In this document: piece after piece, positions 5,131 to 50,425 of the stretch
Layout of the letters: every line of letters begins with the position of its first letter
How positions within the stretch are numbered: the first letter of the stretch is position 1
Assembly: GCA_036351675.1 (NCBI GenBank)
Contig: JAZBPO010000255.1
Coordinates: forward strand, 1-59,036
DNA length: 59,036 nt
Direction: 5' to 3'
Origin: Pseudomonadales bacterium
GTDB lineage: Bacteria; Pseudomonadota; Gammaproteobacteria; Pseudomonadales; Azotimanducaceae
The notes under the pieces: generated by a model
Databases searched by the model: none
The model's input: only the letters and a program-made list of their open reading frames with translations
What the model was told of the DNA's origin: nothing
Program-made: the position numbers and the translations under genes

Positions 5131-7014
5131 ATGTGTGGGATTCTTGGCTACGTAGGGAACGACCGCACCGTGATCGATCGATTCCCCTCGGCGCTGGACA
5201 CCCTCGTCCACCGAGGGCCGGACGACTCGGGTATCTTCAGGGCCGATGGCGTGATTCTCGGCCATCGGCGCCTGTCGATAATCGATCTGTCCAAGGAAGG
5301 TCATCAGCCTTTCGTCGATGCTTCGAGCGGTAACGTCGTCACCTACAACGGGGAAATCTACAACTATCTCGAGATCAGGGAGTCTCTGGAGACCCTGGGT
5401 CACGACTTCCGGTCTGCTTGTGATACCGAGGTGCTCCTCCACGCGTACCGTGAATGGGGAGAGGCGTGCCTCCAGAAATTCAACGGGATGTTCTCCTTCT
5501 CGATTCTCGACCCCGAGAAGAAGAGACTGTTCTTCGCGCGCGACAGATTCGGGGTCAAGCCGTTCTATTACACTCGCGTGTCCGGCTTCATCTTCGCGTC
5601 AGAGCCGAAGGCGATCCTGAAGCTCGATCCGAGTCTGGCGAAGCCCGACCTTCGCGCACTGTACGAGTTCCTGCAGTTCGGGAGGCTCGGCGGTTCGGAG
5701 AGAACCTTCCTGGAGAACATCGAGTCCCTGCTCCCTGCGCACTATGGAGTGCTCGACCTCTCTAGCGGGAGGATCGAAACGTGTCGGTACTGGGATTATC
5801 CGGAGCAGTCGTCGGGAGAAACGGATCCCCGGAGTATCGAGGCGGAGTTCGAGCGCTGCTTCGATGATGCGGTCGCGCTTCGGACGCGCAGTGATGTCCC
5901 TGTAGGGCTGACGCTGTCGGGCGGCATCGACTCGACCGGCATTCTTGCGTCCTTGTCGAAGACTGGCGTCGAAGATCTCTCCAGCTTCACGTCCGTCTAT
6001 GGCGGTTCCGGGCCCGGCGAACTGGATTGGGCGAGGCTGGCGTGTGCGCCCTACTCGGACCGGGTGACGCTGACCGAAGTGCTGGCTGGTGCAGAAGGCT
6101 GGTTGAGCACGTTGGAGAAGATCGTCTGGCACATGGACGGGCCAGGTCTCTCGCCGGCGGTGTATCCGGTCTGGCGAGTCATGGAACGAGCGCGGCAGCA
6201 GGGTGTTCCCGTACTGCTGGAGGGGCAGGGCGCCGACGAACTGCTGGGTGGCTACGTGAACTACTCGGCCCTCGATCTGCTGGAGTCCATGAAGAACCTG
6301 CTCCGACCAGGCCGGAGAGCTTCACTACGCGAGGTCGTGAACAAGTGGCAGGCGATGGGCGACGCGTTCGGAGTGAAGCCGTCCGTCCTCTGGGTCCTGA
6401 GAGAGTCCTTCCCGTTCCTCTTCGAGATGAACAGAAAGCGGAACACGGCAGCTTACGCGCTCAAGGATTCGGTGGTCGAAAGCTGTGTGGTCTCTGGCGC
6501 TCGAAACGACATCGCCGCTTCGAAGTATCCGGATGATCCTGTCTCGGAAAGGCTCTGTTCGGATCATGCGAAGGACATACTTCCAAGCCTCCTCCACTAC
6601 GGCGACGCCATCAGCATGGCTCATTCCATCGAATGCAGACAGCCGTTCCTGGACTATCGGCTGGTGGAGTTCGTGTTCCGCCTTCGTTCCGAACAGAAGA
6701 TCAAGGGCGGCCGCACCAAGGCGCCATTGAGGGGCTATCTGATGAGAGCCGGGCAGGAGGCCATTGCCCGGCGAGCGGACAAGGTCGGGTACATGACGCC
6801 CGTAGATGCGTGGATGTCCAAGGACAACTGCACTGTGCTGAGGCTTTTTCTGTTGGAAGGTGCTCCGAGAATCCTGGAGTTCTGTGAGCGTGGACGGATT
6901 TCGGAGTTGATCGAGCGTTTCGGCGGCGGTGGATTCGCGCTGGGCAATCACATGTACAGGTTGCTGACGACGGAGATCTGGCTCAGGTCCCTGGCCGATC
7001 ACGGTCGATCCTGA
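5131..7014 (+). CDS. asnB: Asparagine synthase (glutamine-hydrolysing)
   Basis: MCGILGY gives the N-terminal Cys2 nucleophile at ATG 5131 inside ORF 4975..7014. The PP-loop LSGGIDS is present, and the product is 627 aa. The upstream extension of the ORF has no coding character. Confidence 0.9.
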   Translation: MCGILGYVGNDRTVIDRFPSALDTLVHRGPDDSGIFRADGVILGHRRLSIIDLSKEGHQPFVDASSGNVVTYNGEIYNYLEIRESLETLGHDFRSACDTEVLLHAYREWGEACLQKFNGMFSFSILDPEKKRLFFARDRFGVKPFYYTRVSGFIFASEPKAILKLDPSLAKPDLRALYEFLQFGRLGGSERTFLENIESLLPAHYGVLDLSSGRIETCRYWDYPEQSSGETDPRSIEAEFERCFDDAVALRTRSDVPVGLTLSGGIDSTGILASLSKTGVEDLSSFTSVYGGSGPGELDWARLACAPYSDRVTLTEVLAGAEGWLSTLEKIVWHMDGPGLSPAVYPVWRVMERARQQGVPVLLEGQGADELLGGYVNYSALDLLESMKNLLRPGRRASLREVVNKWQAMGDAFGVKPSVLWVLRESFPFLFEMNRKRNTAAYALKDSVVESCVVSGARNDIAASKYPDDPVSERLCSDHAKDILPSLLHYGDAISMAHSIECRQPFLDYRLVEFVFRLRSEQKIKGGRTKAPLRGYLMRAGQEAIARRADKVGYMTPVDAWMSKDNCTVLRLFLLEGAPRILEFCERGRISELIERFGGGGFALGNHMYRLLTTEIWLRSLADHGRS

Positions 7015-7371
7015 CGATCACTTGGCAGACGCGGGATTTCCGTGAGATTGCCGTGGATTTCCGCGTGGCGACCGGCTTCGGTGGGCGTTCCTTCGACCAC
7101 TGCTGTCGACGCGGCTTCGATTCGGACATCGGGGGATCGCAGACGTTCCCTCGCCATCCAGCGGATCCGAGGAACGGCTGACAGATCGCGGAAGACACAG
7201 GTGTGGCGGACGTCCGCGATCGTCCCGGGAAAAGGCGGGCGAGAAGGGAAAGCCGTGTGCCGTGAACGGGTCAGGCCGTCGCGTCCTGGAACGCCCTCCA
7301 TGTATGGTGGAGCCCGTGCCGGAACGGCCCGGTGGAACGCTTCTCGAACGAAGTCGGAATCGGGGACCGCC

Positions 7372-9105
7372 ATGCGTATCGCAGCATTGCTTCCGCTCGT
7401 TCTACTCGCATCGCTTCAGCAGCAGGCGGCCCTGGCAGCCGAGACCCTCGAGTACCGCATGCCGGAAGGGTTCTCCTATGCGTTCGAGAACGTCACGGAG
7501 TCGGGCTCGGTGATGGATGTCGAGGCCGACGGGCTGACCATGCCGCTCGAGCAGGAGGTGATCACGCGGACGGCGGGCAGCGTCAGCGTGCTCGCGTCGG
7601 AGGACGGCGTGCCGTCGCGGGTTCGAATCCGTTTCGCCCCGGACTGCGGCACACGATCGACAGCCAACGGCGCGACCCAGGACATGCCCTTCGCCCTTGC
7701 CGGGCGGACCATCGTCGTCGATGTGCGCGACGAGGCGATCGTCGCCGTTCGCGATATGGACGCGGGCGACCTCGTGCTGGACGAGCAGACTCGCCGAGTC
7801 GTCGCCGACATCGCGATCGCGGACGAGTCGTTGCTGCCGGGTCGGCCTGTCGCGCCCGGCGACAGCTGGGTCGCCGACATGGCGCGCGAGGAACGCTCGT
7901 CGACGCCGGTCCTCGATCTCGAAGTCGTCGCTTTCGGCGAGCAGGGTGGCCGACGCATCGCCGAGCTCGCCGCCGAGGGGACGCTCGAGGGAAGTCAGCA
8001 GGGTTTCGCCATGGCCGGCCGGCTGCGCGGTCCCATCGTCATGGACCTGGAAAGCGGCATGGCGCTGTCGTCGCGGCTGACGGGCGCGATCGATGTCGAT
8101 GGAACGCTGAACCAGGGCGGCACGATGGTCACGATGAGGGGCGTCCAGTCCATCACCATGACGTCGTCGAACCGGATCGGCGAGCGCGACCTGGCAACGG
8201 ACGCTGGACCAACCCGAACTCCGCAAGCGGGCAGCGCCGACGACTGGGTGGCGTTCCGGCATGCGTCCGGCGCCACGCTGAAGCACCCTGGATCATGGGG
8301 CGTGGAGGACGGACCCGACGGCGTACGGTTGATCCCGCCCGACACGGCCGGCAACGAGATGATCGTGGCAAGCGGCCTCGCGTCCGGAGCCGGGAGCCCT
8401 GCTTCGCAGGAGGTTGCGGCATACCTCGACTCGGCGCTCGGGCAGATGCTTCCGGGGCTGCGGCGAAGCGGGCCACCGCAGCCGGTTCCTTCGGGCAACG
8501 GACAGGGCGCCCTGTACAGCTACCGTGGCGCTCTGCTCGACGGTTCGCCGATCCTTGCCGACGTCTACGTGACGATCGAGAACGGTGTCGCACTCAGTCT
8601 GTCGGCGATCGCGCCGCCCCCGACCCTGCGCGCCCGTGGCCCGGCCTTGCGCGAGATCTTCGCGAGCATGGCGATGAGCGGATCGTCGGGGCCGGCCATG
8701 GCGGCCGCCGGCGGCGGTGTCGGGGCTGGCGGCAGCGCGAACACGGACGACGACCGCCTGATCGGCATGTTCGGTGGGGAATCGGTCCACCGCGGCAGCG
8801 GGACCTACTTCAACACCCAGCTCGTCTACGTTCTCAACGCCGACGGCACGGTGTACCACGGGGCACAGGGTCACTTCGATGCCGTCACCCGCGATTCGAA
8901 CGGCTACACGCGATGGTCGGCCTCGGGGGTCACCGACGGCAGCGTCCAGGGCGGCCGCTGGAGCGCCCAGGGCGGTGTCCTCGCGATTCGTTGGGACTCG
9001 GGCGAGCGGTCCAGCTTCGCCTATGGCTTCGAACCGGACGGTAGCCTGGTCCTGCGCAATCCGCGTACACGCGAGCTGATCAACTTCTTCGGACGCGTGC
9101 GCTAG
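7372..9105 (+). CDS. Secreted hypothetical protein
   Basis: An internal ATG at 7372 gives a clean signal peptide ([24 protein letters not shown]). GC3 is high throughout. I recognise no domain. Confidence 0.7.
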
Positions 9106-13477: not shown

Positions 13478-15712
13478 GTGATGCCGATCGGAAACATCGT
13501 CGCGCGCTCTGCGCGCACCTTCGTGCGCGACGCCCTCACCAGCGGCTTCGCGGTCCTGTCGGCGCTGATCTCCACGGCGCTCGGCGCTGAGCCGGACCCG
13601 GAGCTTTCCCTGGAGGCGCTGCTCGAGCGGCCGGGCATCTTCGGCACCGCGCCTGCGGGTCCTGCGTGGTCGCCCGACGGTGCGCAGCTCGCGTTCCGCT
13701 GGGCCGAGCCCGGCGAGGGCCGGCGCGGCCTGTGGCTGGTGGCTGCCAGCGGCGAGAATCTCCGGCGCATCGACCAGGGCGCGGCGAACGCGCCAGCAGT
13801 CCGGGAGATCGCCTGGTCCGCCGACGGCGGGCACCTGCTCTCGCTGCGCGGGGATCAGCTGTGGCAGAGCGATCCGGCCGGTGGCGGAGAAGCGGCGATG
13901 TACACGGTCGGTGCCGGAGCCGGGGACCTGAAGGTCTCGCCCGATGGCCGCTACGTGAGCTACCTGCGCGATGGTGACCTGTGGCTCTTCGATCTGCGGA
14001 CGCAGCGCGAACGGGCGCTCACCGCTGTCGGGCTGCCACCCCTGTCGGAGCCGCCCACGGGGCGCTACAGCCGGCCGGAGCGCGAGATCGGTCCGGGCAT
14101 CTGGGGCGGCCCGACCTACGCCTGGTCGCCGGACGGTGCGCGGATCGCGCTTCACCACGTGGATCGCCGTGGCATGCGCCGGGTGCCGTTCCCGAACTAT
14201 CTCGCCGAGGAGACCGATCCGAATCCCGTCCGCCGCGGCTATCCGGGCGACCCCAACGAGGCGCGGCATGTCGGGCTCCTGGGCGTCGAGGATGGCGAGC
14301 TGACGCTGCTGGAACTCGACGAGCCCGAGTCGTTCCAGATCGTCGGCTTCGACTTCTCGAAGCGCGGCGACCTGCTCGTCGACACGGCGTCGGACACCGC
14401 CACCGATCGCCGCCTCTACACGCTCGCCGCCGGGAGCACCGTGCCGGAGCTGCTCTGGGAGAGCCGACGCGAGACGCGCATCTACACCAGCTTCGCCGCG
14501 CGCTGGGTTGCCGCGGGCGATGCGGTCGTCTTGCTCAGCGACCACGAGGACCGCTACGGCCTCTATCGCCTGGCCGTGGATCAGGACGGTGCCGGCACGC
14601 TGCGCCGTCTCGACGATCCTGCCGACGACGTCCTGAGCGAACCGAAGTTCGCCGGCGACGCGCTGTACTTCGAGGCCAATGCCGAGAGTCCGGCGGACCG
14701 TCACGTGTTCCGCCTCGACCCCGGCGCGGCGGTCGCCGAGCAGTTGACGCGCACGCCCGGGCAGAACGTCGCCTTCCCGGCGCCGCGCGGCGGCGCCGTC
14801 GCCATCCTCCACGAGGACGATCGCCATCCGCGCGAGCTCTTCATGCTGTCGGCCGGTGACGCCACGCCACGACGGGTCACCCACTCGCCTGCGGCGGACT
14901 TCGACGACTTCCCGCTCGCCGAGGTCCGCTACCTGCAGACGCCGGCCGGCGGAAGCGGGCCGCCGCTGCACGTGCGTCTCATGCTTCCTGCGGACTTCGA
15001 TGCGGACCGGCGCTACCCGGTGCTCTTCGGCCCGATGTACTCGAACACGGTCCGCAACCGCTGGGGTTCTTCCTACGCCCTGGTGCAGCAGCTCATGACG
15101 CAGCGCGGCTATCTGGTGGTGCAGGTCGACGTGCCCGGCAGCACGGGCTACGGCCGTGCCTTCCGCGAAGTCTTCCTGAACGATTTCGCCGGTGGCGACA
15201 TCGAGGCCATCGAGCGCGTCGTGGCGTATCTGAAGACGCTGCCCTACGTGGACGGTGACCGGCTGGGTATCTGGGGCAGCAGCTACGGCGGCACGCTCAC
15301 GGTCTACACGCTGCTGAAGAAGCCGGGCCTCTTCGCCGCCGGCGTGGCGGCCGCCGCGGCCGTCGATCCAGCGTTCTTCGGCACCGACGACGTCGCGATC
15401 GTGGGCCGGCCCGAGGACGGCACGGGCATCTTCGAGCGCAGGGCCGAGGATCTCGTCGACCGGCTCGAGGACGCACTGCTGCTCGTGCACGGCCTGCAGG
15501 ATCAGGTCGTCCCCTTCAAGACCGCGGCTGCTCTCACCGACGCCTTCATCCGCGCGGGCAAGGACGTGGAGACCGCCTTCCTGCCGGCTGCCACGCACGG
15601 CTGGAGCCGCGAGCCGGGCTACGCCCGCTACGGCTATCAGCGTCTGCTCGACTTCTTCGATCGGCATCTGCAGCCGGGTGAGGGCGACCCGGCGCCGTCT
15701 CGATCGCCGTGA
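13478..15712 (+). CDS. S9 family serine peptidase (DPP IV / prolyl oligopeptidase-like) with signal peptide
   Basis: It starts 12 nt after the TIR-hydrolase stop and GGGAGA precedes it. N-terminal beta-propeller-like WSPDG repeats are present. The C-terminal catalytic motifs are GIWGSSYGG, VHGLQDQVVP and ATHGW. Confidence 0.9.
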   Translation: MMPIGNIVARSARTFVRDALTSGFAVLSALISTALGAEPDPELSLEALLERPGIFGTAPAGPAWSPDGAQLAFRWAEPGEGRRGLWLVAASGENLRRIDQGAANAPAVREIAWSADGGHLLSLRGDQLWQSDPAGGGEAAMYTVGAGAGDLKVSPDGRYVSYLRDGDLWLFDLRTQRERALTAVGLPPLSEPPTGRYSRPEREIGPGIWGGPTYAWSPDGARIALHHVDRRGMRRVPFPNYLAEETDPNPVRRGYPGDPNEARHVGLLGVEDGELTLLELDEPESFQIVGFDFSKRGDLLVDTASDTATDRRLYTLAAGSTVPELLWESRRETRIYTSFAARWVAAGDAVVLLSDHEDRYGLYRLAVDQDGAGTLRRLDDPADDVLSEPKFAGDALYFEANAESPADRHVFRLDPGAAVAEQLTRTPGQNVAFPAPRGGAVAILHEDDRHPRELFMLSAGDATPRRVTHSPAADFDDFPLAEVRYLQTPAGGSGPPLHVRLMLPADFDADRRYPVLFGPMYSNTVRNRWGSSYALVQQLMTQRGYLVVQVDVPGSTGYGRAFREVFLNDFAGGDIEAIERVVAYLKTLPYVDGDRLGIWGSSYGGTLTVYTLLKKPGLFAAGVAAAAAVDPAFFGTDDVAIVGRPEDGTGIFERRAEDLVDRLEDALLLVHGLQDQVVPFKTAAALTDAFIRAGKDVETAFLPAATHGWSREPGYARYGYQRLLDFFDRHLQPGEGDPAPSRSP

Positions 15713-15974
15713 GCACCGCTTCCGCGGAGCGCGGCCACCTCAGCCGCCAATCGGGCCTCCGGGCCTGGCGGCGCCCGGCATCTGCTCCATGCTCGGCGCG
15801 TCTGTTTCCGAACGGCAGGTGCGGTTCGGCGGGAGAACCTCCTGCGCCCGGATGCGAACCGGAGCGAAGCGCTGAAACGCGCGTGTAGGAGATGTCGCAC
15901 AGCAGTGCGGGGCAGGCCCGGCTGCGCTGGAATCGTCGGCCGCAGAGCGCGGCGCTCGTCAGGGGAGAGGGATC

Positions 15975-16964
15975 GTGACCAAGATCTACTTCGGGACCAA
16001 CCGCAAGCCGAACCGCAAGTCGAACCCGACGGACTTCGGTGGCGAGTTCTCGGACATGGGGCTCGCGAACCTCCGCTTCGGCTCGGCGCAGGTGGACCTC
16101 GCCGGCGCTGCGCCCGCCATCGACCTGGACGTCTATCCCGAGGTCACGCCGAAGACCCGCGTGAAGCCGGACTTTCTCGGCGACGTGCAGCGGCGCATGG
16201 CGGACGAGGGCGCCGACGTGATCGTCTTCGTGCACGGCTTCAACGTCAGCTTCACGGAAGCGCTGGTCTCGGCAGCGCGCATGAAGGAAGCCTACACGGC
16301 CGCCGCGGGCCGCCCCTTCGAGGTGGTGGTCTTCTCCTGGCCGTCGAACGGCGAGGTCCTCCACTACCGCAGCGATCGCAAGGACGCGGAGGCGTCGGGC
16401 TATGCGCTGACCCGCGGCCTGGAGTTCCTGTTCCGGTTCCTCGCGCGCATGAACGAGGAGGAGGCCTGCGAGCAGCGTCTCCACCTCGTCTGTCACTCCA
16501 TGGGTAACTACGCCCTGCGCTGGGCGGTGCAGGCCATGAAGGAGGAGCGGCGTGTGCTGCCCCGGGTGTTCGAGGAGATCATCCTCGCGGCCGCGGACGA
16601 GGACGACGACTGCTTCGAGCACGACTTCAAGCTCGGTGACCTGCCCGCGCTCGGCCAGCGTGTCACCGTGCTCTTCAATCGCAACGACTGGGCGCTCGGT
16701 GTCAGCGATCTGGCGAAGGGGAACATGGACCGCCTCGGCGCGAGCGGCGCGCGCCGGCCTCGCATGGTGCATCACAAGATCTCGCTCGTGGACTGCACCG
16801 ACGTCGTCCGGGGCAGGCTCCGGCGCGACCCCATCGAGCACGGCTACTTCCTCGACCAGCAGACCGTGGTCGGCGACATCGGCGACGTGCTGCGGGGCCT
16901 CGCCTCGGACCAGATCGGTGGTCGACGCTTCATCGCCGAGAAGAACGTCTATCGTCTCGGCTGA
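15975..16964 (+). CDS. DUF900-family alpha/beta hydrolase
   Basis: GTG start after AGGGGAGAGGG. Motifs are IYFGTNR, VIVFVHGFNVSF, FSWPSNG and the nucleophile elbow CHSMGN. Confidence 0.8.
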   Translation: MTKIYFGTNRKPNRKSNPTDFGGEFSDMGLANLRFGSAQVDLAGAAPAIDLDVYPEVTPKTRVKPDFLGDVQRRMADEGADVIVFVHGFNVSFTEALVSAARMKEAYTAAAGRPFEVVVFSWPSNGEVLHYRSDRKDAEASGYALTRGLEFLFRFLARMNEEEACEQRLHLVCHSMGNYALRWAVQAMKEERRVLPRVFEEIILAAADEDDDCFEHDFKLGDLPALGQRVTVLFNRNDWALGVSDLAKGNMDRLGASGARRPRMVHHKISLVDCTDVVRGRLRRDPIEHGYFLDQQTVVGDIGDVLRGLASDQIGGRRFIAEKNVYRLG

Positions 16965-38266: not shown

Positions 38267-38448
38267 CTCGTCGAGATCCCCTTCCTCGATGACGGGGCGA
38301 CGACCGTTCGTCCGACGGTCTGCTTTCGGGGGCCCCCGTCTGGCCGGTTTCGCCCGTCGCTCTCGTTAGGGCTTGTGTAGTTCGAAGACCGACCAGGCCA
38401 CGCGGCGACCGCGATGCGATCGCGACGCGGCCTGCAGGGGAGTAGACC

Positions 38449-40782
38449 ATGACGAGTCAGACCACCACCTATCAACTCGCGCCGCGGAGCGCCCACCTTC
38501 TGCTCGAATGGCCGCGGCTCACGCTGCTCGTCGCGGTCCTGACGGTCATCGTGGCGGCGGCCGGGCTGGCCGGCGTCTCGAAGGACCCCTCCGTGGACGC
38601 TTTCGTTCCCGGCGACCACCCCGCCGCCCTGGCGCGGGACCGCGCCCGCGAGTACTTCGGTCTGGAAGACCCGATCGTGGTCGGTCTCGCGGCGCCTGCG
38701 GGAGAGCATGCCTTCACGCCGGCGCGGCTGGAAGCGCTCCGGCGGATCGACGAGGGCGTCCGGCGGATCGAGGGCGTGCGCAAGCCGGACGTCGTCAGCC
38801 TGGCCACGGAGCGCGCGATCTCGGGCGACGACGGAGATCTCCTGGTCGATCCGATCCTCGAGGACGGCCCGCTGTCACCGGCGACGGCCGAGCTGGCCCG
38901 CGAGCGCTTCCGGTCCATGCCGATGCTCTCCGGCCTGCTGGCGTCCGCCGGGGAGGATCTGCTGACGGTGCTCGTGCCGGTCGAGGATCCGAATCACGCT
39001 CAGGAGGAGGTCCGGGCCGTGATCGAGCTCGCGGAGCAGGAGGCGGGCGCCGTCTTCGACGTGCACGTGGCGGGCGTGGCGGCCATGAACGCGCGGCTCG
39101 CGTCCATGGTCGACACGGACACCCGGATCTTCGTGCCCGCGGCCGTCGTCACGGTGCTGCTGATCCTCCTGCTCGCGCTCAGACGACCCGTGGCGCTCCT
39201 CGGGCCGCTCTTCGTCATCGCCGGCGCCGCGGCGGTGGCGATCGGGCTCATGGGCTGGGTCGGTGCCCGCTACTACCTGATCACGACGGCGCTCCCCGTC
39301 GTCATCATGGCCATCGCCGTCGCGGACTGCCTGCATCTCGGCACCTACTACCTGCGCGCGCGGGCGGAGGACGTCGCGTGTTCCGCAGAGGACGCCGTGC
39401 GTGCCGCGATCGCCCGCGCCTGGCTGCCGATCACGCTCACGAGCGTCACCACGATCGCCGCCTTCCTGGGCCTGTCATCCGGCGCTGCGATGCGCCCGAT
39501 CAGCGAGTTCGGACTCTTCGCAGCGGTCGGCGTCGCCGCCGCCTGGGTGCTCAGCCTGACCGCGCTGCCCGCGATTCTCGTGCTCACGGACCTCCGGCCT
39601 TCGACGGGCCGGGGATCCGTGGCGCGGGACGGTACGATCGACGCGGCGGTCCGGCGTGTGACGGCGCTCGCGTTCCGCTATCCGATCCGGGCGCTCGCGG
39701 GCGTGCTGCTGCTGGCGAACGTTCTCGGCGGCCTCGCGTTGCAGGCCGAGTTCGACTACGAGCGGCAACGCTACTTCACGGCGGGAGACCCGGTGCGTGT
39801 CGCCGATCGCGAGATCAACGCGCGGCTCGGTGGCGTGAACTTCCTCGACGTGGTCGTCACCGCTTCGGAGCCGGGCGGACTGCTGGAGCCGCAGGTCATG
39901 CAGGCGATGGCGGAGCTGCGCGCGGAGATGGCGGCGCTGCCGCTGGCGGTCAAGGCGACGGGAATCGACGAGTACATCTCGCTCATGCACCAGGTGCTGA
40001 CCGGCGCGTCGCCGGGCAGCCTGCCGACGGGGGCGCGCGCGCCGGGGCAGTATCTGTTCCTCTACGAGGCGTCGGCGCCTCCGGAAGACTTCAAGCAGCA
40101 GATCGACTACGACCAGCAGCACGCACTGCTTCGGGCACAGCTGTCGACGGACCGCTACTCGCAGACGGTCGGTTCCGTGGACGCGCTCGAGGCGCTGGTC
40201 ACCGACTGGAGTGCGCGTACGGGTCTCGCGGCAGCGGTCAGCGGTCGCGTCGCCGTGAATGACGGCTGGATGCGCGAACTCGCGCGGACTCACGTACGGG
40301 GGCTGCTCGTCGCCGTGGCGCTGGTGCTGCTCGCCTCCGCCGTGGCATTCCGATCGCTGCGCTACGGGGTCTTCGCCATGATCCCCGTGCTCGTCGGTGT
40401 CGTCAGCGTGTACGCCACCATGGGCGCCTTCGGGATCGACATCGCACCGGCCACGTCCATGACCGCCGCCATCGCCACGGGGCTCGGTGTGGACTTCGGG
40501 ATCCACCTGCTCTCGCTGGTGCGTCAGCGCCGCCGGGAAGGCGCGCACGGTCTCGAGGCCTTCTCCGGCAGCTACACGGTCGTCGCGCGGGCGTGCTTCT
40601 TCTCCGCGCTCGCACTCGGCGTCGCACTGGCGGTGATCTGCGTGTCCTCGGCGCCACCGCTGCGCTGGTTCGGTCTGCTCGTGTCCCTGGGCGCCTTCGG
40701 GTCGCTCCTCGGTGCGCTCGTCGTCGTGCCTGCGCTCTGGTCCGTAGGGACCTCGCTCGCCAGGAGAGAAGACCATGTGTGA
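38449..40782 (+). CDS. RND-superfamily exporter (MMPL / COG1033-like, 12 TM with two sterol-sensing-like halves)
   Basis: 777 aa made of two repeated halves, each with hydrophobic bundles and a large loop. GGGGAG serves as the RBS. Confidence 0.9.
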   Translation: MTSQTTTYQLAPRSAHLLLEWPRLTLLVAVLTVIVAAAGLAGVSKDPSVDAFVPGDHPAALARDRAREYFGLEDPIVVGLAAPAGEHAFTPARLEALRRIDEGVRRIEGVRKPDVVSLATERAISGDDGDLLVDPILEDGPLSPATAELARERFRSMPMLSGLLASAGEDLLTVLVPVEDPNHAQEEVRAVIELAEQEAGAVFDVHVAGVAAMNARLASMVDTDTRIFVPAAVVTVLLILLLALRRPVALLGPLFVIAGAAAVAIGLMGWVGARYYLITTALPVVIMAIAVADCLHLGTYYLRARAEDVACSAEDAVRAAIARAWLPITLTSVTTIAAFLGLSSGAAMRPISEFGLFAAVGVAAAWVLSLTALPAILVLTDLRPSTGRGSVARDGTIDAAVRRVTALAFRYPIRALAGVLLLANVLGGLALQAEFDYERQRYFTAGDPVRVADREINARLGGVNFLDVVVTASEPGGLLEPQVMQAMAELRAEMAALPLAVKATGIDEYISLMHQVLTGASPGSLPTGARAPGQYLFLYEASAPPEDFKQQIDYDQQHALLRAQLSTDRYSQTVGSVDALEALVTDWSARTGLAAAVSGRVAVNDGWMRELARTHVRGLLVAVALVLLASAVAFRSLRYGVFAMIPVLVGVVSVYATMGAFGIDIAPATSMTAAIATGLGVDFGIHLLSLVRQRRREGAHGLEAFSGSYTVVARACFFSALALGVALAVICVSSAPPLRWFGLLVSLGAFGSLLGALVVVPALWSVGTSLARREDHV

Positions 40783-41581
40783 TCAGCTCCGTTCTGCATG
40801 GTGCCTGTGCCTGTTTCTGCTGCTGCCGCTGTCGGCCTGGTCCGACGACGACGCGCTGGCGCTCGCGCGCCTCGTCGCCGAACGGCCGGCGAACGAGGGC
40901 CGTACGGGCATCATGCATTTCCATCTGGAGAGCGACGGCGGCCGCGTCCGGGATCGCCGCGCGCGGATGATCCACTCGGAGCGGGAGGACGTGGAGCGCA
41001 TCGCGATCTTCTTCACGGCGCCGGCGATGATCGCGGACACGGCCTTCCTGAGCCTCGATCACGACTCGCGCCCCGACGAGAACTGGCTCTACCTGCCGGC
41101 GACCGATCGCGTCCGCCGGCTCCCGGTCTCCGAGCGCGGGGACGCGTTCATGGGTACGGACCTCAGCTACGGGGACGTCAAGGACAACTTCAAGTTCCCG
41201 CTCGAGGACTGGGACTTCACGCGCGGGCCCGACGCCGAACGGGACGGGAGGATGCTGCCGGTGCTGCGGGGCACGGCGCGTTCGCCGGAGATCGCGAAGG
41301 AAACGGGCTACGGCGCCTTCGAGGCCCTCGTCGACCCCGTCTCGGCGTTTCCGGTCCACATCCGCTACACGGACCGGGATGGCGATCCCCTCAAGGAAGT
41401 CGAGGTCGAGGAGATCGAGGTCGTGGGCGGTGCCCACACGGCCATGCGTTTCAAAGCTCGCAACCTCCAGACGGGACACAGCACCGCGATCCACTTCACG
41501 GAGATGCGCTACGTTCGGACCGTCCCCGAGGAAGCCTTCGAGCCTGCTTCCCTGTCCTACGGTGTGCCGGAGCTGCGATAG
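40775..41581 (+). CDS. Outer-membrane lipoprotein-sorting (LolA-like) protein
   Basis: It overlaps the RND stop by 8 nt and has a signal peptide. Motifs WLYLPATDRVRRL and FMGTDLSYGDV are typical of the LolA_like family. Confidence 0.8.
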   Translation: MCDQLRSAWCLCLFLLLPLSAWSDDDALALARLVAERPANEGRTGIMHFHLESDGGRVRDRRARMIHSEREDVERIAIFFTAPAMIADTAFLSLDHDSRPDENWLYLPATDRVRRLPVSERGDAFMGTDLSYGDVKDNFKFPLEDWDFTRGPDAERDGRMLPVLRGTARSPEIAKETGYGAFEALVDPVSAFPVHIRYTDRDGDPLKEVEVEEIEVVGGAHTAMRFKARNLQTGHSTAIHFTEMRYVRTVPEEAFEPASLSYGVPELR

Positions 41582-42889: not shown

Positions 42890-45277
42890 TCAGCCGCCCG
42901 TGCGCGAGAGGTCCGGAGCTTCCCGGACCACGGCTGCGCTCTGCAGCGTCGGCCACAGTCCTAGCGTCTCCAGTCGAGCGCGCCGATGGACGAGCAGGGG
43001 GCTGGAGGCGATGACGCCCGGAGGCGGCGCATCAGCCGCGAGGTGTGCCCGGCCGTCCTCCGGGGTGCCGTGAGCGGCGATCACCTCGGCTTCGGCGAGG
43101 GCCAGGCGCACTCCTTGCTCCGACTCGGGCCGCAGCTCGGGCAGGGTCCGTCGCGCTTCTTCGAGGGCAGTGGCCGCCTGCGTGAGCGCTCCGGCGTCGG
43201 CCAGGATCTCCACGCGACTGATCCGCGCCGCTGCGACGATCGCCGACCCCGGATCGTCGAAGCGGAGCAGCGTCTCGAGCGCGTCGTCGAGCATCTCGAG
43301 CGCCGCGCGCGTGCGGTCGCGCCGCGCTTCGATCAGCGCGAGGAGCACGAGGGCGCGGCCGGTCTCGGCGCTCTCGCCCTTGCTGGCGCGCGCCTCGAAG
43401 GCGACGGCGCGGGCGAGACGTTCGGCATTGCCGGGATCGGTCCCGCGCCAGAAATCGAACTCCGCGAGATTCAGGCGCCCGGTGTCGGTGCCCGAGATGT
43501 CCATGAGCGGGTTCGCCTCGATGATGGCGACCACTTCCCGCAGTGCATCGTGGGCCCCGGCGAGATCGCCACGTATGCGGCGCATGCGCGAGAGCTGATT
43601 CTGGAAGTACATGTTCACGCTCGGCCCCTGATCCGTGCGCAGACCCTCCTCGAGCAGTGCCTCGGCATTGCGCAGGTCCGCTTCTTCTCGGGTCGCACCG
43701 GCAAGCTGCGTCGCGGCGGCGATGTGATCGGCGCTGCCGCGGTCGTAGCTCGCGGCGTACCAGCGTTCGATCCGCCGCAGCTGGGGAACGGCCGCATCGG
43801 CCTGGTCGGTCTGGAGGTATGCGATGGCGAGCAGATGCGCGCCGAACAGGACCAGATCCTCGGGTCCATAGCCCTCCTCGACCCAGGGCTCCAGGATCGA
43901 GATCGCCGTCGGATAGTCGTTCCGGAACAGAAAGTGGCGACCGATGGCGTGGCCGAGCTGAGCGGCAAGCTCCGGGTCCTCCTCGCGCAGCGCATGCGCC
44001 TCTTCCCAGCGGGCCTTGAGGATCTCCGTCTGGCGAGCGACGTCGGCCTGCCCGCCGAAGCTTCGCTGCAGCGCATCCGAATAGGCGTTCTGGGCGGCGT
44101 AGAAGAGGTTGGCCCGTTCGAGGAAGAACTCGGCTCGGGCGAGGTTCTCCCGTGCCTGATCGCGCTCGCGGCTCGCGCGCTCGGCGAAGGACATGCTCAC
44201 GAACAGACCGGTGACGAGGGCCGTGGCGGTCGCGGCGGCGAGCCCGCTGGCCAGCGCGTTGCGCCGCAGGAAGCGCCCGAGGCGGTAGCCGCGGCCGCCG
44301 TCGCGGGCCTGCACGGGCCGATGCTCGAGGAGGGCGCGCAGATCGTCGGCCAGGGCGTCGACGGAGGGATAGCGATCGGCGGGGTCGAAGGCGAGACAGC
44401 GCTCGACGATGGCGAGTAGATCCGGATCGCCGAGTGCGACGGCGTCCATGCCGCCGTCCGCTCGCCGCGACGGTAGCGCGCCCGCGACCAGCTGGTGCAG
44501 GAGCACGCCCAGGGCGAAGACGTCGGTGGCGACCGTGACGGCGTCGCCCCGGAGCTGTTCCGGCGCTGCCGTCGCCAGCGTGAGGGCGCGGCTCTGGCTC
44601 CGATCCGCATCGATGGCCGTGGCGATGCCGAAGTCGATGAGCCGCACGGCACCCGTGCGATCCACGAGCACGTTCGTTGCCTTGATGTCGCTGTGCACGA
44701 CGAGGTTGCCGTGCGCATGCGCCACGGCCGCCGCCAGGTCGAGCATGAGTCGGACGACGCCGGTTCGGGACAGACTCCGTTCCCGGGCATGTGCGTCGAT
44801 CGTCGCGCCTTCGACGAACTCCATGGCGAGCCAGGGGCGATCGTCGTCCCCGACGCCACCGTCGACGATGCGCGCGATGCCGGGGTGATTCATGCGGGCG
44901 AGCTTGCGCCGTTCCTCGTCGAAGCGGGCGCGAGGCCGTTCGTCCGTGGTCTCCAGGACCTTCAGGGCGACGTCCTGCTCGTACAGTCCGTCGTCCCGGC
45001 AGGCACGGTAGACGGCTCCGGAACCGCCGAGACCGACCGGTTCCCGGATGCGCCAGACGCCGAGGCGATCTCCCGGGCGCAGGGTGAAGGCATCGGTGGG
45101 CGATCCCTCGACGGAGGTCGCCATGAAGCCGGCTCGGGGTCGGAGCTGCTCGAGCAGTCGGCGAGACTCGGGCGGGAGGGAACCGTCGCCGCCCCGGCCC
45201 AGCAGCTTCGCGAGCGATGCCTCGTCGAGCGTGAGCGCCTCTTCGACCTGAGCCGTGACGAGTCGCCAGTCGATCAT
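42890..45277 (-). CDS. Ser/Thr protein kinase with one TM helix and an extracytoplasmic TPR-rich region
   Basis: ATG 45277. Kinase motifs are GLGGSGAVY, VALKVL, HSDIKATNVLV (Ser replaces the Arg of HRD) and DFGIA. The TM helix is LASGLAAATATALVTGLFV. A long helical TPR-like repeat region follows. Confidence 0.9.
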   Translation of the reverse strand: MIDWRLVTAQVEEALTLDEASLAKLLGRGGDGSLPPESRRLLEQLRPRAGFMATSVEGSPTDAFTLRPGDRLGVWRIREPVGLGGSGAVYRACRDDGLYEQDVALKVLETTDERPRARFDEERRKLARMNHPGIARIVDGGVGDDDRPWLAMEFVEGATIDAHARERSLSRTGVVRLMLDLAAAVAHAHGNLVVHSDIKATNVLVDRTGAVRLIDFGIATAIDADRSQSRALTLATAAPEQLRGDAVTVATDVFALGVLLHQLVAGALPSRRADGGMDAVALGDPDLLAIVERCLAFDPADRYPSVDALADDLRALLEHRPVQARDGGRGYRLGRFLRRNALASGLAAATATALVTGLFVSMSFAERASRERDQARENLARAEFFLERANLFYAAQNAYSDALQRSFGGQADVARQTEILKARWEEAHALREEDPELAAQLGHAIGRHFLFRNDYPTAISILEPWVEEGYGPEDLVLFGAHLLAIAYLQTDQADAAVPQLRRIERWYAASYDRGSADHIAAATQLAGATREEADLRNAEALLEEGLRTDQGPSVNMYFQNQLSRMRRIRGDLAGAHDALREVVAIIEANPLMDISGTDTGRLNLAEFDFWRGTDPGNAERLARAVAFEARASKGESAETGRALVLLALIEARRDRTRAALEMLDDALETLLRFDDPGSAIVAAARISRVEILADAGALTQAATALEEARRTLPELRPESEQGVRLALAEAEVIAAHGTPEDGRAHLAADAPPPGVIASSPLLVHRRARLETLGLWPTLQSAAVVREAPDLSRTGG

Positions 45278-45562
45278 GTGCCTGTGTTCTCCGACCGCCG
45301 AAGAGCGCGCCGCCGCGGGCTGGCGGCGGGCCGGCGGGAGTATCGCGCGCGCACGTGCGCCTGACGAGGCTCCGCGGCTTCTCGCCGTGCCGACGCCGGT
45401 CGCGGCCCGATGCTCGTCGTCGATCCGGGCGCGCGAGCCGCGCACCCGGCGGGGTGACCCCCGGATGGGCGCCTGCGCTGTGGCACCGGCCGCGCTGGTG
45501 TAGGCTCGCGCGGGAGACACCGGCAGGGACTGCCGTGTCGACGGGGTGCGGGAGGCATCGGC

Positions 45563-47461
45563 GTGGACGCGACCCAGCGTGAACGCAGCAGCAGAAAGGT
45601 CCGTCCGGGCAACTGGCTACGGATCGCCCTGTTCAACCTCGTCTTCATCGTCGTGCCGCTCGGCATCTACTTCGTCTTCTACGTCGACTCGCGCATCGAG
45701 CAGATCACCGTGCGCAACTTCCGCGCGCTCGATGCGGCGTCCGAGCGGCTGCGGGTGGTCATCGACAATCTCCCGAAGGTTGCCGGCAACGTTCCCGTGG
45801 GCCTCTCCTCGGCCGCGCTTTCCCAGGCGCGGCGCGTCCTGCGGGAAGCCGCGCCGAGCACGGGGCAGAGCGAGCTCGCGGCAGAACTCGCAGCGGCTCG
45901 CTCGCGCCGCGCGGTGGCTCAGCGGCGCGTGGAGGCGTTGTCCCGCGAAGCCTCCGTACCCCGCAGCAAGTCTTCCTTGCAGTCGCTGCTCGACGAGGTG
46001 AGGCAGCAGCAGGCCGCCGTCGTCGGCGATCTGCGCCGGGCGCAGGCGGAGCTGCGCCGCAGCGACGACGAGCTGGCGGATCTCGAGCGGCGCCTGCGCT
46101 ACGCGTCCGGCGAAGCCGACTGCCTCGACAGCTCGGCCATACGGGACCTCGTGGGCCTCGACGCGACCTACAGCGCCTACCTCGAGGACTTCCGTTCCGT
46201 CCCCGGCGCGACGGGCTTCCAGGTCGGTGCGCTGAAGCGTCGCGCGCCTGCCGCGGCGACCGGTGACGCCTGTGCGGAAGCAGCGTCGAAGGAGCTGCGC
46301 AGGCAACTCGACCGGGCCCTCGTCACGACCGCGACGTGCGAGCACGAGGGCGTCAGGCGTCGTCTCATCCTGCAGAGGCCCGAGGGCATAGGCCTGGAGG
46401 TCCGTGACTGCCAACCCTTCGATCGGCGTGCCGAGGCTCTGTCGAGGGCGATCGCGACGGAAGCGCTACGGGGCGTGCTCGACGAGTACGGCGTCCGCAT
46501 CTTCTCGCGTCTCGACACGATCGTGGCGGGCGTCGCGGCGAACGTGGCGCCCCTCTTCGACCAGTACCTGATCACCGATGCGAACGGGCGGGTGCTCTAC
46601 GCCGCCAGCAGCGGCGGTGGTGCATCCCGCGTCGACGACGTCGTCGGCACGCCGAACGGTCGCAACGTCCGGGTCGATTTCGTCAGTCAGGTCGACCTGG
46701 GCGCCCTGGTGCGCAACGAGGCGCGCTCGGCCAGTTCCGCCCTCGATGACAGCCTGGACGCCCTCGGCGCTCGCGCCGGAGGATCGGACGACCGGCCCTG
46801 GGTCCGTTACGGCGTGCACTCGCGCCTCGAGACGATCAGCGTCGCGGACATCACCTTCAACGTCTTCGTGCACCCCTTCGAAGTGCCCGGTGTCGAGTTC
46901 GACCTTGCCGTGGACGACGGAGATGGTGCCGAAGATGCGGGGCGCGGTGACGGAACGCCCGCGGCGCGGCCTCCCGTGCTCTACATGATCGGCATCGTCG
47001 ACCGCGCATCCCTCAGTGACGAGGCCCTGCGGCTGCGCCTGTCCGTCGTCGTCGACGCGCTGCTGTTGCTGGGTGTGCTCTTCACTTCCTTCGCCATGCT
47101 CTGGCTCTGGACCGCCGGTGATCGTCTCGTGCTGTTCACGCGCCACTTCGTGCTCGTACTGGCGACCGGCCTCCTCGGTGCGCTCCTGTACACGCTGTTC
47201 GGCATGCACCTGGTCTCGCGAGGGATCGACGCGAACGCCCTCGACCACAGCATGGCAACGGTCAGCCATCGACTGCGTGAGGGCTTCGCACAGGAGCTCC
47301 AGCGCCGCCTCGCTGACCTCGCGGTCGCGACGGAGGAGATGTTGTCCGGGGACTACGAAGCGGAGGCGGCCGCGTCCTCTCCGGTGCTCAGGGAGCGCTT
47401 CTACTGTCGTCCGCGTGGCGGCTGGCCTCCCGACGACGAGGGGGACGGTGCGCGCTACTAG
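45563..47461 (+). CDS. Membrane protein, N-terminal part of a split ~1620-codon same-frame reading (TM, coiled coil, extracytoplasmic domain, 2 TM)
   Basis: GTG 45563 lies 7 nt after GGAGG. An N-terminal TM (WLRIALFNLVFIVVPLGIYFVFYV) is followed by a coiled-coil stretch (AELRRSDDELADLERRL). It ends at TAG 47459-47461, which is in frame with the next ORF. Confidence 0.7.
   Translation: MDATQRERSSRKVRPGNWLRIALFNLVFIVVPLGIYFVFYVDSRIEQITVRNFRALDAASERLRVVIDNLPKVAGNVPVGLSSAALSQARRVLREAAPSTGQSELAAELAAARSRRAVAQRRVEALSREASVPRSKSSLQSLLDEVRQQQAAVVGDLRRAQAELRRSDDELADLERRLRYASGEADCLDSSAIRDLVGLDATYSAYLEDFRSVPGATGFQVGALKRRAPAAATGDACAEAASKELRRQLDRALVTTATCEHEGVRRRLILQRPEGIGLEVRDCQPFDRRAEALSRAIATEALRGVLDEYGVRIFSRLDTIVAGVAANVAPLFDQYLITDANGRVLYAASSGGGASRVDDVVGTPNGRNVRVDFVSQVDLGALVRNEARSASSALDDSLDALGARAGGSDDRPWVRYGVHSRLETISVADITFNVFVHPFEVPGVEFDLAVDDGDGAEDAGRGDGTPAARPPVLYMIGIVDRASLSDEALRLRLSVVVDALLLLGVLFTSFAMLWLWTAGDRLVLFTRHFVLVLATGLLGALLYTLFGMHLVSRGIDANALDHSMATVSHRLREGFAQELQRRLADLAVATEEMLSGDYEAEAAASSPVLRERFYCRPRGGWPPDDEGDGARY
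47459..47461 (+). other. Single in-frame amber codon separating ORFs 45563..47461 and 47654..50425
   Basis: 47462 is in phase with 47654 (192 nt, 64 sense codons). That interval has no other stop and keeps GC-rich third positions. Confidence 0.9.
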
Positions 47462-47653
47462 CGTTTTCCGCCCTTCGATCTCGCGTTCCTGCTGGATGAT
47501 GACGGGCGCCAGACGCGCTGCCTGTCCTATCGCATCGCGGACACGCCGCCCCTGACGCTCTCTTTCCGCGACTACTTCCGGCGGCCACGGGAGGGGCGCC
47601 TCTGGTGGCCACCGGCTGCGGCACCGGAGGGCGCGGACGCCACGAGGCCGTTC

Positions 47654-50425
47654 GTGCCGGGGCCCATCGCCGGCCAGAGCACCGGAACGCCGACCTGGCC
47701 CGGAGACGCGCCGCGCTTCTTCATCGAGCGGATCACCTCGGTCCTCGACAACACGACCGAGACGGCGCTCTCGGCCCGGCCCGAGGATCTCTGCGCGCCG
47801 GCTGCGGGGCGGAGCGCGACAGGGGAGCCGGCACCGCCGTGTCGGACCGACGCCGGGTCGAAGCCCCCGGTGGCCGTGCTCATCGGCCGTTTCCAGTCGC
47901 TGGAGGAGCCGGTGCTGCCGCCGCACTTCCGGTTCGCCGTCTTCGACGACGCGACCGGAGAGACGCTGTTCCACACGGTCCGGTCGCGGGCGCTGGCGAC
48001 GAACTTCCTGCGCCAGATCGACGGCGACGCCTCGTTGCTCGCGCTCGTGCGGGCGCGCAGCTCCGGCTTCGTCGACCTCGACTACCACGGCACGTCCATC
48101 CGCGCGTTCGTTCAGCCCGTCGCCGAGGACGTGCCGTGGACGCTCGTCGTCTATCGGGGTCGTGAACTCGAGGACACGGTCGGCGTGATGGCGGTCTCGC
48201 TGACCACGGTGAACACGATCGGCGCCTGGACGCTTCTGCTCGCGGTGCTCGGCGCGCTCTGGCTGGTCCGCGGCAGGGAGAGCGTGATCCGCCTCTGGCC
48301 CTGGCGCAGTTGCGGGCTGCCGCAGCTCGAAGCGGCCCGGCGCGGGCTGCTGATCCTGGCGGCCTCGGCCGCGGTGATCCTCGGCGTCCTCGCGTTCGTC
48401 TGGCCCCGTGCTTCGGGCCTCGCTGCCATGGCGACGCTCGTCGCCGCGCCGATCGTGCTCGCCTGGGCTGCGCGCCACGGCGCACGGCCCGGACGGCCGG
48501 CCATCGCAGGCCATGCGTTGACGGAGACCGGCGAGGAGCGCACGCCGCTCGCCGTCACGGTCCTGCTCCTGATCGTCGTGGTCGCCGTGCTGCCCGCGAC
48601 GGGCTGGTATCAGTACCAGCGCGTGGAGCTCAGCGCCGGGCTCGGCGACTACCTCCGCGACGAGACCCTCGCCGCCATCGAGACGCGCTGCGCACGCCAT
48701 CGGGAGTACGCGCGACGCTACAAGCGCCCCTTCGGCGACATCGCCACGAGCGACCTCGGTGGCTCCGGGCTCTGGGACGGGGCCTTCGATCACGGCTGGA
48801 CGCTGGCACCGGTCGAGGATGGCGCTGAGCAGCGGGCGCGGGCCGAGCCGCTCTCGCAGATCTGCTCGGCCTTCAGCGATGCCGGGGCCCATCGGGAACG
48901 GATCGTTCGCGCACTCGACTTCGAAGCGCGCGAGGGCGGGCGGGCGGGAGCGCCCCTGGTGCGCGGCATGGCGGGCTTCTCGCTGCTCGCGGAGGAACTC
49001 TTCGAGCGCAGCAGCGGCATCATGCCCCGTCGCGACCTGCGGTCGACGGGTGCGGTCTTCGAGGCGCTGGTGGAGCCCGAGCGCACCGGCTTCCTGGGTC
49101 GCCTCGATCTCGGCACCTTCGTCCTGCTCGCCTTCGTCCTGATCGTCGGCGGCGCCTTCGCCGGAGCCGTCGTGGTCTCGCTGATCGACCGCATCATCGG
49201 TGTGAAGCTCCGCCTCGCACTGCTGCCCGAGGCGAGGCTCGACCGCCTGCCGACGAGCTGGGTGTCGCAGGACGCGGTGCCGTTGCGTGCCTGTGCGCTG
49301 CATCGTTCCGATGCACTCACGGAGGCGCTCGTGGCACAGCTCGTGGACGCGCGCTTCGGTAGCGCCCGCTACGCGCGCTTCGTGTCCGGAGACGAGGGGC
49401 GCGTCGTCTGGGACGTGGCGCAGCGCGAGCGCCTGCGGCCGGCGCCGGTCCCGGCGGAGGAGGAGACCGACGACGACGCCGATGCAGTGCCTGCGGCGGC
49501 CCGGCCCGTGCTCTACGTGGTCGACGGGCTGGAGCGGATGCTGCTCGAGGAGGCGGCCCGGGACACGCTGCTCCGGGAGCTGGAACGCCTGGTCGCGGCC
49601 GACGCGTCCATCCTCCTGTGTACGCGCGTGATGCCCGGCTTCTGGCTCGCGCGCATGAGTGAGAGCGTCGCCGGAGACGTCGTGAACGTCTCGCGCCGGG
49701 CGGCGCTCACCACACGCTGGGCACACGTGATCGGGCCCTTCGACGTGCGCCGTCTCAGCGATGGCCTCGGCGACCGCGAGGCGAGCTTCGAGCGTGCGCT
49801 CGAGACCCACGAGGCTCGCTGGCGGGGCGATCCCGAGTTCGCCGCAGTGCGTGACCTCATGCTCGCCGAGGCCGAAGCGAACCCCGAACTCCTCGATCTC
49901 GCTGCCGGTGTCACCCGGCAGGTGACGCAGCCGGACTTCGCGGCGCCCGGGTCGAGGGCGAACTCGGCGCTCCAGCGCTTCGCTGCCGTCGCGGCGGGCA
50001 ACTTCCACGAGATCTGGGCGGCTTCGACGCGGGAGGAGCGTCTGCAGCTCTATGCGCTGGCCCGGGGCGGCTTCGTCAATCCCACGGAGACGGTGGTGCT
50101 CTCCTCGCTCGCGAATCGCGGCCTCGTCTCGATCGACGGGATCGTGCAGCTGCGCAGTCGCGCCTTCGGCAACTTCGTGGTCAACGATCTGGTCCACGAC
50201 GCGCTTCTCGCCTGGCGCGACGAGGGCCACGGCAACGTCTGGCGGTCCATCTGGCCACCGATCGTGATCCTGGTGGTACTCGCCATGGCCTTCTTCGTGA
50301 GTTCGACGCCGGAAGCGCTGGCGCCGCTGGCCGCGCTCCTGGCTGCGGGTCTGGGCGCCGTGCCGGTGGTCAACTCACTGCTGCGGAGCGTGCGCGAGTT
50401 CAAGGGGGCGGGAGACGGCGGGTGA
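47654..50425 (+). CDS. Multi-pass membrane protein, C-terminal part of the split reading frame; contains a P-loop-less STAND-like module
   Basis: 923-aa ORF from GTG 47654, with no convincing RBS of its own. It has several TM helices. A Walker-B-like PVLYVVDGLERMLLEE is followed by a winged-helix-like EERLQLYALARGG...LANRGLV and two C-terminal TM helices. Confidence 0.7.
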   Translation: MPGPIAGQSTGTPTWPGDAPRFFIERITSVLDNTTETALSARPEDLCAPAAGRSATGEPAPPCRTDAGSKPPVAVLIGRFQSLEEPVLPPHFRFAVFDDATGETLFHTVRSRALATNFLRQIDGDASLLALVRARSSGFVDLDYHGTSIRAFVQPVAEDVPWTLVVYRGRELEDTVGVMAVSLTTVNTIGAWTLLLAVLGALWLVRGRESVIRLWPWRSCGLPQLEAARRGLLILAASAAVILGVLAFVWPRASGLAAMATLVAAPIVLAWAARHGARPGRPAIAGHALTETGEERTPLAVTVLLLIVVVAVLPATGWYQYQRVELSAGLGDYLRDETLAAIETRCARHREYARRYKRPFGDIATSDLGGSGLWDGAFDHGWTLAPVEDGAEQRARAEPLSQICSAFSDAGAHRERIVRALDFEAREGGRAGAPLVRGMAGFSLLAEELFERSSGIMPRRDLRSTGAVFEALVEPERTGFLGRLDLGTFVLLAFVLIVGGAFAGAVVVSLIDRIIGVKLRLALLPEARLDRLPTSWVSQDAVPLRACALHRSDALTEALVAQLVDARFGSARYARFVSGDEGRVVWDVAQRERLRPAPVPAEEETDDDADAVPAAARPVLYVVDGLERMLLEEAARDTLLRELERLVAADASILLCTRVMPGFWLARMSESVAGDVVNVSRRAALTTRWAHVIGPFDVRRLSDGLGDREASFERALETHEARWRGDPEFAAVRDLMLAEAEANPELLDLAAGVTRQVTQPDFAAPGSRANSALQRFAAVAAGNFHEIWAASTREERLQLYALARGGFVNPTETVVLSSLANRGLVSIDGIVQLRSRAFGNFVVNDLVHDALLAWRDEGHGNVWRSIWPPIVILVVLAMAFFVSSTPEALAPLAALLAAGLGAVPVVNSLLRSVREFKGAGDGG

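Follow-up and report, generated by a model that had tools for sequence, protein, structure and literature searches.

We analysed a window of 59,036 nucleotides from a Pseudomonadales bacterium (contig JAZBPO010000255.1 of assembly GCA_036351675.1, positions 1 to 59,036, the whole stretch of DNA considered here), in which a very long reading frame of the forward strand, at 45563-50425, is interrupted by one in-frame TAG. This region is one gene, for a giant multi-pass membrane protein. Its homologues are encoded as single genes, the TAG lies within a conserved domain of the protein, and its most probable origin is a nonsense substitution of very recent date, such as TCG to TAG, the gene being otherwise intact. 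The explanation of the interrupted frame is an ordinary one: either a young nonsense allele or a base-call error, in a gene whose relatives are all unbroken.

One reading frame with a single internal stop

Translated directly, 45563-50425 yields 1,621 codons in one frame (1,620 of them sense). Ahead of the terminal TGA there is one stop, at codon 633; no second stop or frameshift was found across the 1,620 codons. The upstream open reading frame (ORF), 45563..47461, starts with GTG, encodes 632 aa, and closes at the TAG of 47459-47461, whereas the downstream ORF, 47654..50425, encodes 923 aa in the identical phase. The 64 codons between them (47462-47653) contain no stop, and the peptide that they encode begins RFPPFDLAFLLDDDGRQTRCLSYRIADTPPLTLSFRDYFRRP... 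The G+C content at third codon positions (GC3) stays at 0.78-0.98 throughout the region, the TAG and the 64-codon bridge included, so that the coding signal is continuous across the stop. The initial annotation, made from the letters alone, had described about 1,620 same-frame codons with one in-frame TAG, 64 stop-free codons with GC-rich third positions behind it, and a C as the next nucleotide (+4C); all of this is borne out by the translation and by the GC3 profile. The start at GTG 45563 appears credible (Table 1). Since the G+C content of the window is 69%, the length of an ORF by itself says little. An antisense ORF of 1,254 aa (46466-50230, reverse strand) overlaps the giant gene; its frame lacks the GC3 signal, and it is a high-GC shadow ORF, not a gene.

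Homologues run unbroken through the position of the TAG

The homologues, too, show the frame to be continuous. First, the joined 1,620 aa, used as a query, retrieved three proteins (P0001, P0002, and P0003; 1,541-1,590 aa, 38-39% identity, 90-99% query coverage) that are colinear with the joined protein, with alignments that run unbroken through the TAG junction; colinearity over this much of the protein shows that the continuity of the frame is not due to chance. Second, the approximately 45 residues past the TAG (R[YF]P.[FY]DLAF..D..G....C.S.R..DT.P..L.FR.YF..P...LW) rank with the stretches of the protein that are richest in invariant positions. Third, a partial metagenome locus (L010) is continuous at the junction and has zero stops in 1,303 codons, and two further orthologues (P0006 and P0007) are likewise uninterrupted. 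Fourth, a profile of the 987 post-TAG residues, run exhaustively with HMMER, found 2,665 representatives at E <= 1e-3, including 167 at E <= 1e-30. Most of the 2,665 are 1,300-1,900 aa long, and profile positions 1-10 fall at target residues 400-900, i.e., deep inside the target proteins. When the full-length profile was used, 78 of the 152 best representatives spanned the junction in one HMMER alignment with at least 40 positions on each side. The short homologues start at scattered profile positions (657, 665, 680, 739, 759, 794, and others), as would be expected of fragments or sporadically broken copies. The family had looked tiny in less sensitive searches: a word-index search gave three proteins, even with a profile, and pattern scans gave one genome and two metagenome loci. 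The exhaustive search revealed this to be a limit of sensitivity.

The initial annotation had proposed a single giant membrane protein, a reading to which orthologues consistently split at the TAG would have been fatal, and had raised the question of which sense codon might occupy the site in relatives. No recurrent split point at the TAG is seen among the 152 best representatives, and the colinear full-length homologues together with the approximately ten transmembrane (TM) segments described below agree with the proposal. The column of the TAG is variable among orthologues (G/T/S/A), where the codons found are TCG (Ser, L002), TCC (Ser, L010), and GGA (Gly, L001), with TCG belonging to the orthologue nearest in G+C content. 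The 64-codon bridge is a coding stretch and no intergenic spacer.

A probable Cache-type sensor domain within a membrane protein of about ten helices

A hydropathy scan revealed about ten TM segments (residues 18-40, 493-518, 527-551, 877-903, 925-948, 952-970, 994-1016, 1182-1212, 1563-1580, and 1586-1607). The protein begins with a TM helix and a large extracytoplasmic region that includes a coiled coil; a TM hairpin then leads to the dCache_1-type domain, behind which come four TM helices in a bundle, one further TM helix, the cytoplasmic module, and a terminal TM hairpin. By the positive-inside rule, both large soluble regions of the N-terminal half would be extracytoplasmic and residues ~1226-1566 cytoplasmic.

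The initial annotation had seen in the peptide behind the TAG a likeness to Cache/PDC sensor domains. The giant protein itself gives no direct support to this idea, as it has no Pfam or NCBIfam match and no dCache_1 match at E <= 1, but the idea is supported by its relatives. In a Pfam scan of 32 full-length family members, 15 match dCache_1 (PF02743) and no other family recurs. The best match lies in P0072 (residues 306-546) and extends over model positions 6-239 of 240, with an E-value of 7.1e-12 and 45.8 bits, against a gathering score of 45; the other matches shown score 17-40 bits, under that threshold. Projected through the family profile, these matches correspond to residues ~557-863 of the giant protein (nt 47231-48151), a segment bounded by TM3 (527-551) and TM4 (877-903). 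An AlphaFold2 model of residues 255-905, built from a 4-sequence alignment, is poor (mean predicted local distance difference test, pLDDT, 41). In this low-confidence model a long helix is followed by beta-beta, helices, and beta-beta-beta leading into a TM helix, with the first beta-strands in the bridge. Foldseek searches with it returned weak matches (best E 0.011, none <= 1e-3) that are uniformly of the CitA-PDC, tandem-Cache, PscC/dCache-ectodomain, and PAS types, and a profile search of PDB sequences with the same residues found nothing significant. By transitive homology, the bridge peptide would thus represent the first beta-strands of an extracytoplasmic sensor domain of the dCache_1 type. 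The TAG (residue 633), between TM3 and TM4, falls ~76 residues into this domain, past its first helix and just ahead of its first beta-strands.

The portion of the protein most widely conserved in the family, which comprises 2,665 representative clusters, is the region of residues ~1226-1566, with the motifs RW..vL..F and LW..SS.EE.LQL.ALA.GGF.NP....L.SL..RGLI. Pfam, NCBIfam, PADLOC, and PDB sequences gave no match to this C-terminal module, and PDB profile searches with residues 1017-1562 and with a 14-sequence C-terminal profile gave nothing significant; a ClpV-like 'type VI secretion' match in the PDB profile search was weak (E = 0.025) and was dismissed as due to chance. Its AlphaFold2 model (4-sequence alignment, pLDDT 43.5) is too poor for a fold search, and Foldseek returned nothing with it. 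Read by eye and unverified, the module contains hhhhDGLE ... hhhCTRvxP, a helical region, and a winged-helix-like LQL.ALA.GGF.NP....LSSLANRGL. A likeness to STAND/NACHT proteins (Walker-B, TSRP), also seen by eye only, is not claimed: the Walker-A position is degenerate and there is no Pfam match.

The protein belongs to a widespread family of ~1,300-1,900 aa without family-level annotation, in which a dCache domain would be coupled to a conserved cytoplasmic module. From the architecture, the most economical reading is that of a ligand-sensing membrane protein in which the Cache domain would signal through the TM bundle to a yet undescribed cytoplasmic output.

Origin of the stop codon

How might such a gene have acquired a stop? 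We think it probable that one base substitution turned a non-conserved sense codon into TAG at codon 633, the most plausible ancestor being the Ser codon TCG, from which TAG is one C-to-A transversion away. Translation would then stop after 632 residues, with the N-terminal region and three TM helices made but no more of the sensor domain than its first helix, and the remaining 987 codons would not be translated to a useful extent, presumably with loss of function. The event would be very recent, with the rest of the gene still undecayed. In a leave-one-out test with the window protein and five full-length orthologues, each protein was scored at the positions on which all the rest agree; past the TAG, the window copy retains 172 of 189 such positions (91%), much as intact orthologues do (88-92%). 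Neither relaxed constraint nor extra lesions, the signs of an old pseudogene, are found past the TAG. Retention equal to that of intact orthologues means that the lesion, if real, is recent. In addition, 2.2% of the possible substitutions in this gene yield a stop, which, given its 4.9 kb, makes it a large mutational target.

Other observations weigh against a genuine nonsense mutation. The nearest homologue in the collections searched is only 45% identical, near-identical sequences being absent, and exact-protein look-ups of the 632-aa ORF, of the 923-aa ORF, and of the neighbouring major facilitator superfamily (MFS) protein found no record; the assembly is the sole source of the base call. 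The total lack of decay would also be predicted by a consensus error or by continued expression. Finally, the tetranucleotide CTAG that the stop creates is approximately 5-fold depleted in the window: 12 copies are observed (at 675, 4768, 5762, 9102, 10858, 18368, 30495, 37613, 37635, 42961, 47458, and 52979) where a second-order Markov model predicts ~60 and base composition would give 166. Of the remaining copies, about half overlap an annotated TAG stop of one or the other strand; CTAG otherwise lies mostly at true gene ends. This pattern suits an artefact as well as a very young mutation. The lack of decay, the lack of a second lesion, and the avoided CTAG together imply a change that is either very young or not real.

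The alternative that survives best is a sequencing, assembly, or consensus error, in which position 47460 or a neighbour was miscalled and the gene is intact. It would account for a gene that is otherwise perfect, in its retention of invariant positions as in its reading frame, and for the appearance of a strongly avoided tetranucleotide. However, no other interrupted gene was found in the 59-kb window, which counts against an error-prone assembly. Two further pairs of same-frame ORFs, at 25359 and at 7012, were considered as interrupted genes and rejected, both being ordinary boundaries between genes; the pair at 7012 consists of an asparagine synthase and a 687-aa ORF, unrelated and complete genes that happen to share a frame. 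Substitution errors in consensus sequences are rarer than indels, and genuine nonsense alleles are common in long accessory or non-essential genes of bacteria. On these general grounds we hold the real mutation to be probable and the error to be unlikely. A template-switch origin of the TAG at a quasi-palindrome (CGCTA-C-TAGCG) was considered for the mutation and is uninformative, as such palindromes occur 2.3 times per kb.

Production of the full-length protein by amber readthrough, either through leaky termination at TAG-C or with a suppressor or pyrrolysine (Pyl) tRNA encoded elsewhere in the genome, seems improbable to us. Termination in bacteria is reported to be weakest with a +4C, mainly at UGA (PMC5289835), the TAG column accepts many residues in orthologues, and the undecayed post-TAG half is what continued expression would leave. 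But the stop is not conserved at this site, which holds a sense codon in every orthologue that reaches it. No stimulatory RNA structure was detected, the 121 nt around and downstream of the TAG folding no better than shuffled sequences (z = -0.24), and there is no tRNA or Rfam element within the 59-kb window. Coding-like ORFs of the window end in TGA (35), TAG (9), or TAA (1), and TAG closes complete genes supported by Pfam, namely an aminotransferase (followed by an outer-membrane protein gene with its own Shine-Dalgarno sequence and GTG), a sulfatase, and a LolA-like protein; TAG is therefore an ordinary stop in this window. C follows the stop in 5 of the 8 other TAG-ending ORFs, where it is the commonest context, and the +4C is thus not distinctive. 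Besides, unassisted readthrough of UAG usually amounts to ~1% or less. Nothing supports programmed recoding, and of the options that the initial annotation had left, recent inactivation and sequencing error both stand, whereas amber readthrough found no positive support. One variant, slightly more doubtful still, is that leaky UAG-C termination or a suppressor tRNA from elsewhere in the genome would allow low-level full-length expression, with the stop acting as a translational attenuator of a very large sensor, from an uncharacterised family in which a dCache domain is joined to a novel cytoplasmic module.

Last, a functional split, with the 632-aa N-fragment as one polypeptide and a C-fragment started anew at GTG 47654 as the other, is highly improbable. 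No in-frame ATG, GTG, or TTG precedes this GTG after the TAG, and it is a Val codon within a loop that varies between lineages. The initial annotation had seen no convincing ribosome-binding site there; a Shine-Dalgarno-like GAGG does sit 6 nt 5' of it, but such 4-mers precede 14.6% of the in-frame codons of the giant gene in the same position range, a chance rate at which the GAGG is no evidence of a start. A restart at this position would drop the invariant FDLAF...FR.YF block, and, judging from the topology, ~220 residues of Cache domain would need to be exported with no TM or signal segment ahead of them; nor is a break at the junction recurrent among the 152 representatives. The conservation of the bridge and its location in the Cache domain rule out a real start at GTG 47654, which is artefactual as a start.

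The recent nonsense substitution thus keeps our preference. Whether allele or error, the TAG is most likely of little general importance, a strain-level loss-of-function allele if real. For annotation, we recommend that both ORFs be joined into a single gene and the internal stop be flagged; the 923-aa 'protein' from GTG 47654 should not be propagated. The family is the more useful result, because its cytoplasmic module could be an undescribed kind of signalling output.

Genomic neighbourhood and features

The giant gene stands alone, with a divergent Hanks-type Ser/Thr kinase upstream and with a methyltransferase, an HI0933-like flavoprotein, and an MFS transporter, convergent to it, downstream. 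The kinase (42890-45520, reverse strand; 876 aa, Pkinase domain at residues 158-356) is separated from the giant gene by ~42 bp between the putative starts, and this pairing is absent beside the orthologues. There is no conserved gene neighbourhood, the surroundings of four orthologues being completely different. Next to P0001 (locus L008, on the Pseudomonadales metagenome-assembled genome contig JANQFF010000233), a 635-aa protein with a Tle1-like (DUF2235) catalytic domain of the type VI secretion system is encoded 30 nt downstream (14804-16711); it has no equivalent in the window or at the other orthologue loci. Both this gene and the kinase beside the giant gene are lineage-specific.

Elsewhere in the window, the G+C content falls to ~64% between 4000 and 8000, versus ~70% in the rest; this stretch holds the asparagine synthase (4975-7014) and part of the 687-aa ORF, which has no Pfam match (7042-9105). 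A protein of ~1,060 aa with bacterial TSP3 and FG-GAP-like repeats, encoded on the reverse strand at 963-4172, is probably a large secreted or surface protein. On the forward strand, the interval 38446-41581 encodes an MMPL/RND-type transporter with a sterol-sensing-domain-like region and, behind it, the LolA-like protein, a likely pair for lipid or lipoprotein export.

Table 1. Features of the giant gene, in window coordinates (SD, Shine-Dalgarno sequence; residue numbers are those of the joined protein).
Feature	Position	Strand	Basis
Giant multi-pass membrane protein gene (single gene) with one in-frame TAG	45563..50425	+	Translation, GC3, colinear orthologues, 2,665 post-TAG homologues
Translation start: SD GGGAGG, 7-nt spacer, GTG 45563	45545..45565	+	Sequence; N-terminus aligned to orthologue N-termini
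TM1 (residues ~18-40)	45614..45682	+	Hydropathy
TM2-TM3 hairpin (residues ~493-551), with invariant LWLWT.G motif	47039..47215	+	Hydropathy, alignment
dCache_1-like extracytoplasmic sensor domain (residues ~557-863), contains the TAG	47231..48151	+	dCache_1 matches of the family projected by hmmalign; flanked by TM3 and TM4
In-frame premature stop TAG at codon 633, next base C; makes a rare CTAG	47459..47461	+	Translation; sense codons in orthologues
64-codon bridge: conserved block FDLAF..D..G....C.S.R..DT.P..L.FR.YF..P...LW, then variable loop	47462..47653	+	Invariant alignment columns
First in-frame GTG past the TAG, inside variable loop of the Cache domain	47654..47656	+	ORF list, alignment, SD test
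TM4-TM7 bundle (residues ~877-1016)	48191..48610	+	Hydropathy
TM8 (residues ~1182-1212)	49106..49198	+	Hydropathy
Conserved cytoplasmic C-terminal module, fold not recognised (residues ~1226-1566)	49238..50260	+	Alignments
C-terminal TM9-TM10 hairpin (residues ~1563-1607), with invariant SIWPP...FFVSSTPEAL motif	50249..50383	+	Hydropathy, alignment

Comparison with known systems

The interrupted gene shares some traits with programmed recoding of stops in prokaryotes (pyrrolysine at UAG, leaky termination, supE/supF amber suppression), namely an in-frame UAG, a conserved and coding-like downstream frame, and the +4C. It differs from it in that the stop is not conserved, in the lack of a PYLIS-like or other structure and of a suppressor or Pyl tRNA in the window, and in the use of TAG as an ordinary stop by the neighbouring genes. 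The likeness to internal-stop pseudogenes and null alleles of bacteria is closer: the full-length orthologues are intact, one premature stop falls inside a conserved domain, there is no compensating start, and TAG is used normally elsewhere. The giant gene differs from them in showing no further degradation; it would be no more than a strain-level allele or a pseudogene of very recent origin, and a base-call error looks identical.

As to the protein itself, the resemblance is to the dCache_1 sensors (PF02743) of chemoreceptors and histidine kinases, such as PscC (6mni), TlpQ (6fu4), and mmHK1S-Z3 (3lib). Like them, it has a domain of ~300 residues between two TM helices, in which, according to the low-confidence model, a long helix comes first and beta-rich PAS-like modules follow; its relatives match the Pfam model over nearly its full length, and the fold matches are of the same type. 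Unlike them, the giant protein remains below any Pfam threshold and has no recognisable transmitter (histidine kinase, methyl-accepting chemotaxis protein, GGDEF, or similar), and it carries instead approximately ten TM helices and another large extracytoplasmic region, together with a cytoplasmic module that lacks annotation.

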